This document shows positions 9,799 through 21,687 of a stretch of DNA of 29,451 bases, piece after piece; positions within the stretch are counted from its first letter, which is position 1, and the number at the start of each line of letters is the position of its first letter. The DNA lies in contig CALVPO010000001.1 in NCBI GenBank assembly GCA_944351345.1, positions 1 to 29,451 of the forward strand. Reading direction: 5' to 3'. Below the pieces are notes generated by a model. That model searched no databases. It had not been told where the DNA came from and was given only the letters and a program-made list of their open reading frames with translations. The DNA is from an uncultured Bacilli bacterium. GTDB taxonomy: Bacteria > Bacillota_I > Bacilli_A > RF39 > UBA660. The translations under genes and the position numbers were made by a program.

Positions 9799-11629
9799 TA
9801 TAGTTTTTCCTTAAATATATCATTAGTATAGAGATATCTGAAGGATTTACACCACTTATTCTCATAGCTTGCCCTATTGAATTTGGACGAATTTCTTCTA
9901 ATTTTTGTTTAGCTTCGCTTGCTAGGTTAGTTACTTTATTATAATCTATATCCTCTGGCATTTGTTTTGATTCTTGAGATAACATTTTCTGTGCTTCTCT
10001 TTCTACTTTTTTAATATAACCTTCATACTTTATTTGAATTTCTACTTGATTTAATACTTCTTTACTATATGGTAGTTCTAGGTTATATTTTTCTTTTATA
10101 TCCTCTAATTTAATTGTTGGGTCTTTTAAATAGTCATAGACATTAGTTCCGTATGGTCCTTTTACGTTTTTTACAGTAATTTTTGTTTCTTTTAGTTTTT
10201 CTTTTAAATCTTTTATAGTTTTTTCTTTTTCTAATAATTTATTATGTCTTTCTTCATCTATTAATCCAACTTTATAGCCATATTCTCTTAATCTTAAATC
10301 GGCATTATCATGTCTTAATAATAATCTATATTCAGCACGTGATGTTAGCATTCTATATGGTTCTTTAGTTCCTTTTGTTACCAAATCATCTATTAATACA
10401 CCTATGTATGCTTCATTTCTTTTTAAAATTAATGGCTCCTTATTTTCTAGTTTTAAAGATGCATTTATACCTGCTATTAAACCTTGGCATGCTGCTTCTT
10501 CATAACCACTTGTACCATTTATTTGTCCGGCTGTAAATAAGTTCTTTATTATTTTTGTTTCTAGACTTGCTTTTATTTGAGTTGGATAGATAGCATCATA
10601 TTCTATAGCATAGGCGTACTTTAATATTTTGGCATTAGATAAACCAGGTAAGGAGTGAACCATTTTTTCTTGAATATTTTCTGGCATACTTGTTGAAAAC
10701 CCTTGTAAATATATATCATCGTAGTATAAGCTTTCTGGTTCTAAGAATAATTGATGTCTTTCTTTATCTTTAAATCTAGTTACTTTATCTTCTATTGATG
10801 GGCAGTAACGTGGACCAACTCCTTTTATGTCATCTAAGCCACCGTACATACTTGATTTAGATAAATTGGCATTTATTATTTTGTGAGTAGTGCTATTTGT
10901 ATATATTAAGTAACATGGTACTTGATTTTCAACATTATAAATTGGCTCTATGTCATGTGAGAATGTATATGGTGTTTTATCACCTTCTTCTTTTTTTGCT
11001 TTTGAGAAGTCTATAGAACTTTTTTCAATGCGTGGGGGAGTTCCTGTTTTTAGTCTAAGTATTTTAAATCCATACTTTTTGAGATTATCACTTAAGTGTT
11101 GTGAAGGTTTTTCATTATTAGGACCACTTCTTGTTCTTGTTGAACCTCTTAAAATATCTGACTTTAAGTAAGTACCTGTTGTTAATATTACTATTTTTGA
11201 ATGAATAATCTTACCATCTTTTAAATATACGCCTTTTACTTCATTTGAATCTACAATTAAATCTTCAACCATTCCTTCTAATAATTCTAATTTTTTTTGT
11301 TTTTTTAATGTTTTCAACATTTCTTGTGGATAAGTTATTTTATCGGCTTGTGCTCTTAGAGAATGGACAGATGGTCCTTTTGATGAATTTAGCATTTTCA
11401 TTTGAATTAATGTTTTATCAGCATTTATGCCCATTTCGCCACCTAGAGCATCTATTTCTCTTACTATTATTCCCTTAGCGGAACCACCTATTGATGGATT
11501 ACATGGCATAGTAGCAACATTTTTTAAATTTCCAGTTATTAATAGAGTTTGGTGTCCTTTTCTGGCTGAGGCTAGAGCGGCTTCGCAACCAGCATGACCT
11601 GCTCCTACTACAATTACTTCATACTCCAT
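9791..11629 (-). CDS. mnmG: tRNA uridine-5-carboxymethylaminomethyl modification enzyme GidA
   Basis: VIVVGAGHAGCEAA, MPCNPSIGG, GPRYCPSIEDK, AGQINGTSGYEEAA. Start moved to MEYEVIVV (11629), behind a GGTGA SD. Confidence 0.97.
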   Translation of the reverse strand: MEYEVIVVGAGHAGCEAALASARKGHQTLLITGNLKNVATMPCNPSIGGSAKGIIVREIDALGGEMGINADKTLIQMKMLNSSKGPSVHSLRAQADKITYPQEMLKTLKKQKKLELLEGMVEDLIVDSNEVKGVYLKDGKIIHSKIVILTTGTYLKSDILRGSTRTRSGPNNEKPSQHLSDNLKKYGFKILRLKTGTPPRIEKSSIDFSKAKKEEGDKTPYTFSHDIEPIYNVENQVPCYLIYTNSTTHKIINANLSKSSMYGGLDDIKGVGPRYCPSIEDKVTRFKDKERHQLFLEPESLYYDDIYLQGFSTSMPENIQEKMVHSLPGLSNAKILKYAYAIEYDAIYPTQIKASLETKIIKNLFTAGQINGTSGYEEAACQGLIAGINASLKLENKEPLILKRNEAYIGVLIDDLVTKGTKEPYRMLTSRAEYRLLLRHDNADLRLREYGYKVGLIDEERHNKLLEKEKTIKDLKEKLKETKITVKNVKGPYGTNVYDYLKDPTIKLEDIKEKYNLELPYSKEVLNQVEIQIKYEGYIKKVEREAQKMLSQESKQMPEDIDYNKVTNLASEAKQKLEEIRPNSIGQAMRISGVNPSDISILMIYLRKNYNE

Positions 11630-11713
11630 TTTATCACCACTTTCTTCAACGTAATATTTTAACATATAACATAAAAAAAAGAAATAGTACTAGTTAACTA
11701 GTATAAATTAAAT

Positions 11714-16107: not shown

Positions 16108-16230
16108 TTATGCACATAATTTTTTTCTTTTTTTAGCTCTTCTTAACTTTAAAATATTTGTTAATCTTCTTTTTCTAAAGCCATGCTTTTTGGCTCTTTT
16201 AGCTTTATTTGGTTGATAAGTTCTTTTCAT
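16108..16230 (-). CDS. rpmH: 50S ribosomal protein L34 (40 aa)
   Basis: Below the ORF-track cutoff; translates MKRTYQPNKAKRAKKHGFRKRRLTNILKLRRAKKRKKLCA; GGAGGTG SD. Confidence 0.95.
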   Translation of the reverse strand: MKRTYQPNKAKRAKKHGFRKRRLTNILKLRRAKKRKKLCA

Positions 16231-16289: not shown

Positions 16290-16395
16290 CTATTATGTTT
16301 ACAAAATTAAAGGTTTTTTTTGTTTTTTTTGATATTTTTATTTTATTATTAACCTTTTTATGATAAAATTAGTTTGAGAATAAGGAGGTCTTTAT

Positions 16396-18150
16396 ATGTT
16401 TAAAGAGATAACTGCTATTAGTAAAAATTTTGCTATGGTTAGATTAGAAGGGAGTGCTAATGATGATTTATTGAACATGAATGTTATTTTTGAAGATGGT
16501 AGTAAAAAAATTTTAGGTGAAGTTGATGAAATAGATAATAATCAACTTAAAATTAGTTTTTTAGGAGAATTTGTTAATGATAAGTTTTTGGGAGGTATAA
16601 TTAGAAAACCTAGTTTAACATCTAAGATAAGAATGATTAACCAACAAGAATTAGGAGAACTAGTTGGTGAAAATAATGATAAAAGTATGGTTTTAGGCCT
16701 TTCTCCTTTGTATAATGATTATCCTATTAAAATTGATATCGATGATATGTGGAGTAATCACAGTGCTATTTTTGGAAATACTGGTAGTGGTAAAACATAT
16801 GGAGTAGCTAGATATGTTCAAAATTTATTTAATATGCCAGATAAAATTCCTTTTAATAGTAATATTTTTATATTTAACAATACTGATGAATATGATAATG
16901 CATTTAAAACCATTAATACCTATAATGTTAATTTTAATTATAAAATGTTTTCTATTAATGGTAACGAAAACAATTGTATAAAGTTACCTTTATGGCTGTT
17001 ATCTGTTGATGATTATGCTAATATTTTAGATGTTACTGAATATTCACAGTTATCGGTTATTGAAAAAATGCTTAGTTTAGTTTCTGCTTTTGCTAGGAAT
17101 GATGCTGAATCTAAAAGATATAAAAATCATTTGATAGCAAGTGCCATTACTTCTGTTTTATACACTAATCAAACACCTGGTAGAATTAGAGATCAGATAT
17201 TTTCTATATTAGAAAACTGTTATACTGATGAATTGAATTTAGATGTTGAAGTACCTGGAATTGGTTATACTAGACAGTTTAGAAAATGTTTTGAGATAGA
17301 TAGTAAAGGTGAATTTGCAGAAAGGGTATTAATTGCTGAATATATTCAAAAATTCGTTGATAATAGTACCAAATGGAATGAAGATTTTGTTCCTATATAT
17401 TTTACTCTAGATGATTTAGAAGTAGCTCTTAATTTTGCTCTAATTTCTGAAGGATTACTTTTAAATGAAAAATCATATAGCGAGGCTATGGCATTAAAAG
17501 TAAAACTTCACACTATCAATAATAGCAGTTATAAAAAGTTATTTAATTATGGTAAATTTGTTAATATTTCAGAGTTTATAACTGATTTGATTATGATTGG
17601 TCAAACAAAAAGAGCACAAATTATAAATTTTGTTTTAGAGGACATAGATGATAGATTTGCTAAGGCATTAGTTAAAGTTTATTGTAGAATTATTTTTAAA
17701 TTTAGTAAAGGACTTAAAGATAGAGGAGCTATGCCTATTCATTTAATGTTAGAAGAAGCTCATAGATATGTACAAAGAGATAATGATATTAATATATTAG
17801 GATATAATATGTTTGAAAGAATTGCTAAAGAAGGCAGAAAATTTGGCGTTGTTTTAGATTTGATTACTCAAAGACCAACTGAATTATCAGAAGCTGTTAT
17901 CTCACAATGTAGTAATTTCTTAATTTTTAAAATTACACATCCTACTGATTTAGAATATATTAGAAAAATGGTTCCTAATATTAGTGCAGATGTAATTGAA
18001 AAACAAAAATCTTTGCAAGCTGGAACATGCGTTGCTTTTGGAAAAATGATGAAAATTCCTATGATTGTAAAAATGCAACTACCTAATCCTGAACCAAGGA
18101 GTTCAAATGCATCAATTTACAACAAGTGGATGATTGAGTGGAAAAGTTAG
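16396..18150 (+). CDS. HerA/FtsK-superfamily ATPase (HAS barrel + DUF87-type domain)
   Basis: Walker A GNTGSGKT, Walker B LMLEEAH, ERIAKEGRKFG and TQRP motifs; AAGGAGG SD; extended -10 TGATAAAAT at 16361-16369. Confidence 0.88.
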   Translation: MFKEITAISKNFAMVRLEGSANDDLLNMNVIFEDGSKKILGEVDEIDNNQLKISFLGEFVNDKFLGGIIRKPSLTSKIRMINQQELGELVGENNDKSMVLGLSPLYNDYPIKIDIDDMWSNHSAIFGNTGSGKTYGVARYVQNLFNMPDKIPFNSNIFIFNNTDEYDNAFKTINTYNVNFNYKMFSINGNENNCIKLPLWLLSVDDYANILDVTEYSQLSVIEKMLSLVSAFARNDAESKRYKNHLIASAITSVLYTNQTPGRIRDQIFSILENCYTDELNLDVEVPGIGYTRQFRKCFEIDSKGEFAERVLIAEYIQKFVDNSTKWNEDFVPIYFTLDDLEVALNFALISEGLLLNEKSYSEAMALKVKLHTINNSSYKKLFNYGKFVNISEFITDLIMIGQTKRAQIINFVLEDIDDRFAKALVKVYCRIIFKFSKGLKDRGAMPIHLMLEEAHRYVQRDNDINILGYNMFERIAKEGRKFGVVLDLITQRPTELSEAVISQCSNFLIFKITHPTDLEYIRKMVPNISADVIEKQKSLQAGTCVAFGKMMKIPMIVKMQLPNPEPRSSNASIYNKWMIEWKS

Positions 18151-18158
18151 ATTATCAT

Positions 18159-18188
18159 ACTATGCAATATAAAGCATAGTTTTTTTTT
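18159..18188 (+). terminator. Intrinsic terminator after the HerA-like gene
   Basis: ACTATGC-N8-GCATAGT followed by a T8 tract. Confidence 0.75.
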
Positions 18189-18194
18189 GCACTA

Positions 18195-18368
18195 ATTTCC
18201 ACATAATACTACACGTTGAAAAAAAGTTTTCCACAGTATGTATTTTTTTACTGTTGTGGAAAATTGTGGAAAAGTTCGTTAAATGCTTAAAAATAAAGAT
18301 ATATTGCTGTTGATAGTGTTGTGGAAAAGTATGTGTTTTATTAATTTTATTTTTTGTACTTTTCCACA
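18195..18368. promoter_or_regulatory. oriC DnaA-box cluster upstream of dnaA
   Basis: ATTTCCACA 18195; TTTTCCACA 18227 and 18360; TGTGGAAAA 18255, 18265, 18320. Confidence 0.88.
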
Positions 18369-18455
18369 GACTATTTTTTTGTTACTTTATAATGAAATTT
18401 TTACACTTTTATTTTTTTTATGATAAAATTATTTTATGTGTTGGGAGGTAATGAC

Positions 18456-19850
18456 ATGAATGTTGATATTTTATGGGAAAATTTTCTGGATAAAATAAAA
18501 GAAAATATTTCATCTTTATCTTATGAAACTTGGTTTAAAGATACTAAATTGGTTTCTTTAAGAGATAATGTTGCTATTATTATTGTCCCGATGCCTTTTC
18601 ATAAAAAGCATTTAGTTGAAAATTATAGTAGTATTATTGAAAATACATTTACATCTTTAACTGATACTAAATTTTCATTTAGATTTCTCTTAGAAGAAGA
18701 GTGGTTAGAAGAGAAGGATAATTTTAATGATAAAAAAATAACTCTACCACAAAATATTCCTAATAATAACATTGAGCAAAGGGTTTCTACTCAATCTGCT
18801 ATTGATGCTAATCTAAATAAAGATTATGTATTTAGTACTTTTATTGTAGGAAATTCTAATAGATTTGCTTATACTGCATCAATGGCAGTAGCTGAAAAGC
18901 CTGGAAAAGCATATAATCCACTTTTTCTTTATGGTAAAAGTGGATTAGGTAAAACTCATCTAATGCATTCTATTGGTAATTATATTATTAAGAATTCCAA
19001 CTTAAAAGTTTTGTATATTTCTAGCGATAAATTTGTTAATGATTTTATTAATGCAGTTAGAAGTAATGATAAAAATAATTTTGACAAAATTGATGTATTT
19101 AAAAATAAGTATAGAAATATAGATGTTTTAATGATTGATGATATACAATTTCTAGGAAATGCTACTAAGGGACAAGAAGAGTTTTTTCATACATTTAATG
19201 AACTTTACAATGAAAATAAACAAATTGTTATAGCCTCTGATAGATCTGTTGATGATTTAAAAATGTTAGAAAACAGATTATTAACTAGATTTAATTGGGG
19301 ACTTACAGCAAATATTACTCCACCTGATTTTGATTTAAGGATGGATATTATAAAGAAAAAAATTTCTCATCAAGAATCTGCTAAAGATATCCCTATTGAG
19401 GTTATTGAGTATATAGCAAATAATTTTGCATCTGATGTTAGGCAATTAGAAGGAGCAATTACTCGAGTATTTGCTTATGCTTTAATGATGAATAAGGGTG
19501 TTGTTGATTTGGATACTGCTGTTGATGCTTTAAAAGATCAATTGACAGATAGAAGTGTTTATAAAAACGACATTCATAGAATTCAAACTGTTGTATGTGA
19601 TTATTTTAAAATTACAATTGATGATATAAAAGGTAAAAAAAGAAGTCAAAATATAAATTATCCTAGGCAGGTGGCTATATATTTATGTAGAACTATGGCT
19701 AATGAATCATTTCCTAAAATAGGAACTCATTTTGGAGGTAGAGATCATTCTACTATAATGAGTTCTTATAGAAAAATTGAGAAAGATTTAAAAACAAATG
19801 AACAATTAAAAATTGTTATAAAAGAATTAAAACAAATGTTATCCACATAG
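18456..19850 (+). CDS. dnaA: Chromosomal replication initiator DnaA
   Basis: YNPLFLYGKSGLGKTHL, DVLMIDDIQF, RQLEGA, FGGRDHST. Start moved to ATG 18456 behind GGGAGG. Confidence 0.98.
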   Translation: MNVDILWENFLDKIKENISSLSYETWFKDTKLVSLRDNVAIIIVPMPFHKKHLVENYSSIIENTFTSLTDTKFSFRFLLEEEWLEEKDNFNDKKITLPQNIPNNNIEQRVSTQSAIDANLNKDYVFSTFIVGNSNRFAYTASMAVAEKPGKAYNPLFLYGKSGLGKTHLMHSIGNYIIKNSNLKVLYISSDKFVNDFINAVRSNDKNNFDKIDVFKNKYRNIDVLMIDDIQFLGNATKGQEEFFHTFNELYNENKQIVIASDRSVDDLKMLENRLLTRFNWGLTANITPPDFDLRMDIIKKKISHQESAKDIPIEVIEYIANNFASDVRQLEGAITRVFAYALMMNKGVVDLDTAVDALKDQLTDRSVYKNDIHRIQTVVCDYFKITIDDIKGKKRSQNINYPRQVAIYLCRTMANESFPKIGTHFGGRDHSTIMSSYRKIEKDLKTNEQLKIVIKELKQMLST

Positions 19851-19970
19851 AGTTGTGGAAAAATTAATTTTTTTCCACAGTAGTTGTGGAAAAAATATCG
19901 TTGAAAAACAAAAAGAAAATAAAGTTTTCCACAATATCCACAGCATAATAATAAATAAAATAAATAATAA
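19839..19970. promoter_or_regulatory. oriC dnaA-dnaN region: DnaA boxes plus AT-rich unwinding element
   Basis: TTATCCACA 19839, TGTGGAAAA 19854 and 19885, TTTTCCACA 19871 and 19925, ATATCCACA 19934, then GC and ATAATAATAAATAAAATAAATAATAA. Confidence 0.88.
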
Positions 19971-21201: not shown

Positions 21202-21687
21202 ATGAAAGAATTATCTAATTATGTTATTAATTATGAGACATTGTTAATTATTCCTTATATTGAAGATGAGAATAAGAAGATAATCAAATCAAAAGTTTTT
21301 GAACTTGATGAGGAATTTATTGTTAATAAAAGTCCTTTTGAGATAGTTAGTGATAGTTGTTTATTTTTTGGAAGTTCATTTGAAGGAAGAAGGCAAGGTA
21401 CAATAAATTTAATTAGTTGTGGAATAAAAGTTCCAATAATTATAGAAGATAGTAAAAATTTTATTTTTTTTCCTACTCATTCATATAAAAATAATAAAAA
21501 TATTTGGGTTTCTTATAAAAATTTAATTAATTATAAGAAATATGATGTTGATTCTACTTTATTTAAATTTATTGGGAATAATGATATAAAAGTTAATGTT
21601 AGGTATAACATTGTTGATAATCAAATTATTAGATGTATTAAATTAAATGATGTTATAAATAAAAGAAAAATGATTAGAAATAGATAA
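21202..21687 (+). CDS. ComK-family protein
   Basis: YVINYETLLIIP, SCLFFGSSFEGRR, KVPIII...FFPT.S....W pattern recognised as ComK-like; orthology to true comK not established. Confidence 0.75.
   Translation: MKELSNYVINYETLLIIPYIEDENKKIIKSKVFELDEEFIVNKSPFEIVSDSCLFFGSSFEGRRQGTINLISCGIKVPIIIEDSKNFIFFPTHSYKNNKNIWVSYKNLINYKKYDVDSTLFKFIGNNDIKVNVRYNIVDNQIIRCIKLNDVINKRKMIRNR

Follow-up and report, generated by a model that had tools for sequence, protein, structure and literature searches.

A stand-alone HerA-type ATPase beside the replication origin of an uncultured gut Bacilli bacterium is probably a domesticated relative of anti-phage motors

HerA motors are known in two settings, with NurA in the resection of DNA ends and in anti-phage systems, where they activate toxic effectors. 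Here, we describe a HerA-type ATPase with no such partner beside it, encoded by a gene (herA-A) that lies between rpmH and the replication origin (oriC) in a window of 29,451 nucleotides, the whole stretch of DNA analysed, from an uncultured Bacilli bacterium (contig CALVPO010000001.1 of assembly GCA_944351345.1). We consider it probable that herA-A is a HerA of defence ancestry that has kept its catalytic apparatus and has been domesticated into a core gene with a housekeeping role. The assembly amounts to 1.41 Mb in 164 contigs and is 89.6% complete, and the window has a G+C content of about 25%.

The product of herA-A is a genuine, intact HerA-type ATPase. Its match to the Pfam DUF87/HerA central domain (PF01935) reaches 67.5 bits (cut-off 23.2), and the PADLOC HerA model PDLC04102 matches nearly the whole length of the protein at 334 bits. 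Walker A (GNTGSGKT, residues 127-134), Walker B (LMLEEAH, residues 450-456) and the arginine-finger QRP (residues 492-494) are all intact. An AlphaFold2 model, built on an alignment of 65 sequences, gave a predicted local distance difference test (pLDDT) score of 90.6 and a predicted template modelling (TM) score of 0.88, and has a beta-barrel at the N-terminus followed by a RecA-like core with a large helical bundle inserted in it; the strands of the barrel fall at residues 2-80 with a pLDDT of about 90, identifying it as a HAS-type barrel. The original prediction had described a 584-residue HAS-barrel/HerA ATPase with intact Walker motifs and arginine finger, and the DUF87 match, the motifs and the modelled fold all bear this out. 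The protein would be expected, by homology, to form a ring that moves along or remodels DNA at the expense of ATP. Its parts are as follows.

Residues ~1-104: beta-barrel, the N-terminal domain.
Residues 105-203 and 405-560: RecA-like core.
Residues 204-404: helical bundle, inserted in the core and holding the hairpin GYTRQFRKCF (residues 290-299).
Residues 561-584: C-terminal brace.

When this model was compared with the PDB using Foldseek, the top 50 matches were all HerA chains, led by the HerA of the Staphylococcus aureus Sir2-HerA system (8yhx, TM 0.76/0.78), with none but other defence HerAs in the ranks that follow. Sequence matches in the PDB were to the HerA of the DUF4297-HerA system (9c1m, E 1e-45), to SIR2-HerA and to Sulfolobus HerA, and a search of the ESM Atlas returned DUF87 clusters alone. 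Against the NCBIfam equivalog models the protein gives partial matches to HerA_antiphage and HerA_antiphage_2, at 151 and 156 bits where the cut-offs are 800 and 850, and so falls short of the models for the HerA of anti-phage systems. Scores for the repair-HerA equivalogs helicase_HerA and HerA_Thermprot were 93 and 118 bits against cut-offs of 970 and 800, and the match to the CedD model was partial and far under its cut-off.

The HerA of Nezha-type SIR2-HerA systems (S. aureus SaHerA 8yho/8yhx, Paenibacillus 8wiv/8wld, Escherichia coli 8j4u/8sub) has the same barrel, RecA-like ATPase and inserted bundle as HerA-A. Walker A, Walker B and QRP are common to the two, as is a C-terminal brace that ends in a conserved tryptophan; the best fold match has TM scores of 0.76-0.78, and in the tree HerA-A groups with SIR2-linked HerAs to which it is 32-37% identical. 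Their genomic settings differ: a SIR2 gene is adjacent to, and usually overlaps, the herA gene of those systems, whereas the upstream neighbour of herA-A is the divergent rpmH. SIR2-HerA systems are patchily distributed and sit in defence islands, in contrast to the core, vertically inherited and duplicated HerA-A with its housekeeping neighbours. The DUF4297-HerA systems (9c1m, 8xau, 8ziq) supply the best PDB sequence match, which includes the C-terminal NPEPRS...W tail, and both proteins are about 585 residues long, but DUF4297-type HerAs belong to the other main branch of the tree described below. Sulfolobus HerA (4d2i), of the HerA-NurA pair, is likewise a HAS-barrel and RecA-like hexameric motor and matches the C-terminal ATPase half of HerA-A with an E value of 1.8e-28; it differs in having a four-helix bundle in place of the large nine-helix-type bundle of HerA-A. 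FtsK/SpoIIIE proteins belong to the same additional strand catalytic E (ASCE) superfamily, and their profile (PF01580) matches weakly over Walker A (19.8 bits against a cut-off of 24). As ring translocases on double-stranded DNA they offer a working analogy for HerA-A, which differs from them in lacking a membrane anchor and a gamma domain. We class HerA-A neither with FtsK nor with the NurA-type HerAs of repair.

The position of HerA-A among its relatives points to an origin close to the SIR2-linked motors. An exhaustive profile-free search of 1.8 billion representatives returned 4409 relatives. Those that are full-length in a single stretch of 576-602 residues (P0130, P0133 and P0140 among them) have no partner wherever context was available, and each of the next-nearest relatives (32-37% identity, 635-685 residues) lies in a defence island and has a SIR2_2 gene upstream that overlaps it. 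In a tree of 81 sequences (IQ-TREE, LG+C20, quick search, midpoint root) the stand-alone proteins form a clade of 27 rows with a Shimodaira-Hasegawa-like approximate likelihood ratio test value of 100 and a stem of 0.64, and this clade lies inside a 100%-supported group with the SIR2-linked P0134 and P0137. The DUF4297-type HerAs fall on the opposite side of the midpoint root. Some divergent stand-alone members from other metagenomes (P0129, P0133 and P0140) have a degenerate Walker B and/or arginine finger (e.g. IDNAH, EKAD, QRP missing), and on their sequences these may be inactive or regulatory derivatives.

The stand-alone clade also differs structurally from its SIR2-linked relatives. All of its members lack the N-terminal extension of 30-60 residues and the two barrel insertions (of about 10 and of 20-25 residues) that are seen in the SIR2-linked proteins. 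In the published structures the docking site for Sir2 is formed by the barrel of HerA, with its protruding hairpins, and by the HerA N-terminus (PMC11472057, PMC11514289), and deleting HerA residues 1-35 together with the Sir2 N-terminus abolished binding (PMC11472057; PMC11514289). The trimmed barrel of HerA-A, on which these contacts were mapped by alignment alone, therefore fits the loss of a SIR2 partner. The helical bundle, by contrast, is more conserved in the stand-alone clade (mean identity 0.50-0.52) than among SIR2-linked HerAs (0.31), and it carries the clade-specific hairpin at residues 290-299, which is nearly invariant in the stand-alone clade and absent or variable in defence HerAs.

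No partner gene was found in the flanks of herA-A on either strand, as the original prediction had said, and known partners were not found elsewhere in the genome. NurA (PF09376) gave zero matches, with a positive control that matched in 7 of 14 genomes, and SIR2_2 (PF13289) likewise gave zero. The three cognate SIR2 proteins of the closest defence relatives also had no match, either in a tblastn search or in a hidden Markov model search of all stop-to-stop open reading frames. DUF4297/Cap4 (PF14130) is not adjacent to herA-A and had no match in the genome, but it had none in any control genome either. For the original prediction of a stand-alone motor the outcome is therefore divided, as the grouping of HerA-A with SIR2-linked defence HerAs counts against it and the failure to find a cognate partner elsewhere counts in its favour.

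Several candidates for a less obvious partner were considered and set aside. This genome has no homologue of the small open reading frames that other genera carry between ylxM, herA and ffh, nor of a 484-residue protein encoded downstream of herA in one of those genera (g5), and the neighbours of the second gene copy described below vary by genus (infC-rpmI-rplT, yqeH, sepF). The C-terminal extensions of some orthologues might have been fused effectors, but they hold no Pfam domains and are low-complexity, disordered tails. Such tails, 80-360 residues long and rich in S, T, N, P and Q, occur in many copy-A orthologues of other genera (L052, L053, L057, L019, L054, L056 and L062) and in P0123, P0124 and P0129, and contain recurring motifs (AIPDF, IPEMDI, LV[STN]F, EHNPALDFG and a terminal PLINLIG) that resemble docking peptides. 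The HerA-A of the window has no tail of this kind.

The stand-alone clade is a near-constant feature of one family of uncultured gut Bacilli, found in human, ruminant and chicken guts and having small genomes of 0.7-1.5 Mb. Copy A is present in 17 of 17 genomes of the genus, and the clade in 23 of the 24 family genomes of one sample and 34 of the 36 (at least 29 genera) of another, usually together with a second copy, herA-B. Beyond the family, the clade occurs in two related small-genome families, and 261 genomes of the remaining families gave three weak matches only. In this genome herA-B, a paralogue that the original prediction had missed, encodes a protein of 589 residues, 41% identical to HerA-A, on another contig (C16; L014 2210-3979), where it sits after infC-rpmI-rplT and before a gene for a Fic-domain protein. 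This protein has 224 residues and its gene (L014 4032-4706) starts 53 nt after herA-B. The A and B sub-clades broadly track genera, and the single copies found in the two related families branch at the base, which points to an old duplication in the ancestor of the family.

The catalytic motifs GNTGSGKT, LMLEEAH and TQRP are conserved in both A and B orthologues. An obligate hetero-ring of A and B is unlikely, given that several near-complete genomes have only A or only B and that both paralogues keep these motifs; homo-oligomers should be sufficient. Constraint on the gene is strong. Within the genus, identity is 82-91% for HerA-A, 72-83% for DnaA and 59-73% for RnpA, and rough estimates of the median pairwise ratio of nonsynonymous to synonymous substitution rates (dN/dS) across 11 genomes are 0.079 for herA, 0.097 for yidC, 0.137 for dnaA (its N-terminal 219 codons) and 0.233 for rnpA. 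In RNA libraries from chicken and bovine gut, contigs of close relatives (85-92% identical) span the herA reading frame at a word depth like that of dnaA and fall away over the oriC spacer, which is compatible with transcription of herA and gives a weak indication of it rather than proof.

The place of herA-A beside oriC is derived and specific to its lineage, a single-gene transcription unit having been relocated there, and does not define the family. The order rpmH-herA-oriC-dnaA was found in 11 of 11 checked genomes of the genus (g1), in three other genera (g4, g30 and g46; 71-75% identity) and at each of 20 more public loci with 76% identity or above. Orthologues at 47-55% identity are placed elsewhere, and at least 19 genomes from many genera have the arrangement ftsY-(x)-ylxM-herA-(0-2 genes)-ffh. 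The arrangement that the original prediction described thus holds within a subclade at 71% identity or above, and not in the other genera. In this genome ftsY-ylxM (contig C4, 9663-10930) and ffh (contig C6, 20750-22057) are on separate contigs, so the operon has been broken where herA stood ancestrally. The site of copy B varies: in this genome it follows rplT, in two genera it follows yqeH, and in another it precedes sepF. Since the oriC-adjacent position is derived, it gives no support to an origin function; the original prediction stands in so far as it described a stand-alone, host-like and apparently domesticated ATPase, and not in reading the location as a pointer to origin firing.

The features of the locus are as follows.

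16108-16230, minus strand: rpmH (L34), the divergent neighbour of herA-A, with a perfect promoter TTGACA-17-TATAAT at 16289-16261.
16361-16388, plus strand: expression signals of herA-A, read directly; extended -10 element TGATAAAAT at 16361-16369 and Shine-Dalgarno sequence AAGGAGG at 16382-16388.
16396-18150, plus strand: herA-A, encoding the 584-residue stand-alone HerA/DUF87 ATPase, identified from the list of open reading frames, profiles and the fold model; ring form expected by homology.
18159-18188, plus strand: intrinsic terminator of herA, a hairpin with a 7-bp stem at 18159-18180 followed by T8.
18195-18368, no strand assigned: DnaA-box cluster upstream of dnaA, six boxes, part of a bipartite oriC.
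18456-19850, plus strand: dnaA, with a likely start at ATG 18456 behind the Shine-Dalgarno sequence GGGAGG; the longest open reading frame runs from 18420.
19839-19933, no strand assigned: second DnaA-box cluster, between dnaA and dnaN.

On the minus strand, upstream of herA-A, lie jag, yidC, rnpA and the divergent rpmH, and on the plus strand, downstream, lie dnaA, dnaN, a ComK-family gene, recF and gyrB. The original prediction had given herA-A its own promoter, strong Shine-Dalgarno sequence and terminator, a composition like that of the host, and a place between rpmH and dnaA ending 45 bp before the first DnaA box, and all of this was confirmed. The Shine-Dalgarno sequence is 7 nt upstream of the ATG. 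The extended -10 element, at about -35 from the ATG, follows a pattern (TGnTAnAAT) that is kept in 25 of 27 related loci, and the terminator comprises a hairpin and a T-run, with four terminator-like sites observed against 0.3 expected. The G+C content of herA-A is that of its surroundings. The first DnaA box, ATTTCCACA, stands at 18195, 45 bp past the herA stop, and is followed by five perfect TTTTCCACA boxes extending to 18368; across the window there are 39 DnaA-box matches against 11 expected.

Some further details concern the genes downstream. The ATG that opens the longest dnaA reading frame, at 18420, falls within an extended -10 promoter, and the DnaA proteins of relatives align from residue 13 of that frame, so that the true start is likely to be at 18456, 7 nt after GGGAGG. 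The ComK-family gene (21202-21687; Pfam 6.5e-37) lies between dnaN and recF, where it interrupts an otherwise canonical dnaA-dnaN-recF-gyrB block, and a ComK-family gene occupies the equivalent place in genus g4 (locus L015).

Considering these data together, the lineage of HerA-A would have arisen inside the group of HerA motors that serve SIR2-HerA anti-phage systems, would have lost the SIR2 NADase partner along with the barrel elements that dock it, and would have gained a new conserved hairpin in the helical bundle. Duplication into A and B would then have given rise to a vertically inherited, strongly constrained core gene in one small-genome family of gut Bacilli. Copy A would ancestrally have stood within the ftsY-ylxM-ffh operon, and in a subclade of about four genera that operon would have been split, with herA-A, now under its own promoter and terminator, settling between rpmH and oriC. 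As to what the protein does, its ring assembly, its action on DNA and a task outside defence are suggested by its relatives and its setting, and that this task is that of a motor in DNA repair, recombination or segregation is a proposition we regard as almost evenly balanced, leaning slightly towards doubt. More tentatively, we consider it possible, though less likely than not, that a phage-defence motor has turned housekeeping DNA machine, in which the GYxRxFRxC hairpin would bind a substrate or partner and which would meet a need in genome maintenance or segregation that is otherwise unmet in reduced genomes without RecJ and RadA/Sms; in some genera such a motor might be recruited through the short peptide motifs on disordered tails.

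With regard to that need, RadA/Sms was not found in the 24 family genomes searched (58-96% complete), this genome included, and RecJ was not found in this genome, with one weak match below the cut-off, in a bin with 9% contamination, elsewhere in the family. RecJ and RadA/Sms are likewise missing from many families of the class that have no HerA. The idea that HerA replaces a lost ring helicase or nuclease was set aside, as RuvB and an AddA-like helicase-nuclease are present and the losses of RecJ and RadA show no clean complementarity with HerA. Replacement of FtsK was also rejected, since an FtsK of 738 residues is encoded elsewhere in the genome (contig C81), in addition to an EssC-like multi-FtsK protein. 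The latter, a multi-FtsK/SpoIIIE protein of 1532 residues, is encoded near a 480-residue FtsK-domain protein on contig C13 (~10279-11679 and 18811-19413), and this pair suggests a type VII-like secretion locus.

A number of points weigh against a domesticated core motor acting on DNA. The gene is not strictly indispensable, since three family genomes (88-96% complete) have no copy and several genera have kept just one of A and B. With dS at about 1, near saturation, the dN/dS figures are approximate, and given the midpoint root and quick search the stand-alone clade could be sister to the SIR2-linked HerAs instead of nested in them. An unlinked partner may exist, as these are uncultured organisms and the assembly is 89.6% complete. 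That the protein acts on DNA is suggested by its relatives only, and the long-standing placement in the operon of the signal recognition particle (SRP) pathway could hint at a role that does not involve DNA.

Other explanations of the locus need to be considered alongside this one. HerA-A might still be an immune protein, the sensor or motor of a defence system with an effector that is unlinked or of a type not yet recognised, and it is true that its closest relatives in sequence, profile and fold are all anti-phage HerAs, and that HerA in anti-phage systems serves as a scaffold and activator of the effector (PMC11514289). We think this unlikely given the near-universal vertical presence of the gene in one family, purifying selection stronger than that on dnaA, and housekeeping neighbours with no defence island; the barrel elements on which Sir2 docks are missing, SIR2, NurA and DUF4297 genes were not found in the genome (the DUF4297 search having no positive control), and the protein scores 150-156 bits against NCBIfam anti-phage HerA cut-offs of 800-850. 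A second possibility is that the motor owes its placement to a function at oriC, on DnaA, at replication forks or in origin segregation. The gene borders on a DnaA-box cluster and points the same way as dnaA, every examined genome of the subclade at 71% identity or above has the arrangement, and the extended -10 elements of herA and dnaA are at the same distance from their start codons. Indeed, a 17-mer, TTTTTATGATAAAATTA, occurs twice, at 16355-16371 and 18415-18431 (0.06 occurrences expected), each time ending 24 nt before the start codon of herA or dnaA. This identity is not kept in relatives, so we rejected the notion that the herA promoter is a copy of that of dnaA; the two 17-mers are probably two near-consensus extended -10 promoters, and speak of consensus rather than co-regulation. 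As the position is derived, with the orthologues of most genera in the SRP operon and paralogue B at other sites, as no DnaA boxes were found upstream of herA, and as a terminator separates herA from oriC, a role tied to the origin seems to us very improbable.

The SRP operon itself raises the question of whether the protein works with the SRP pathway (FtsY, YlxM and Ffh) or translocates polypeptides, as some ATPases of the FtsK/HerA superfamily (EssC, VirB4) act in secretion. In favour of this, at least 19 genomes, drawn from many genera, have copy A placed between ylxM and ffh, in a family whose other gene orders vary. However, this linkage has been broken in the subclade studied here with neither loss of the gene nor accelerated change, paralogue B is never linked to SRP genes, and the characterised close relatives all act on DNA. 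Membership of an operon within one family can also be inherited synteny, and HerA-A has no membrane segment and no secretion-system neighbour. We therefore see very little likelihood of such a role, slightly less even than of one at the origin, and continue to favour a domesticated HerA with a housekeeping function.

We found no published description of a stand-alone core HerA in Firmicutes, within an incomplete coverage of the literature. For annotation, these data mean that a stand-alone herA gene should not be read as an incomplete SIR2-HerA defence system, and that the neighbourhood of oriC should not be taken as functional evidence for herA. If our account is true, HerA-A would be a clear example of a part of an immune system being put to cellular use, in an abundant family of uncultured gut Bacilli, and would mark an uncharacterised piece of the DNA (or other) housekeeping of minimal-genome Firmicutes.

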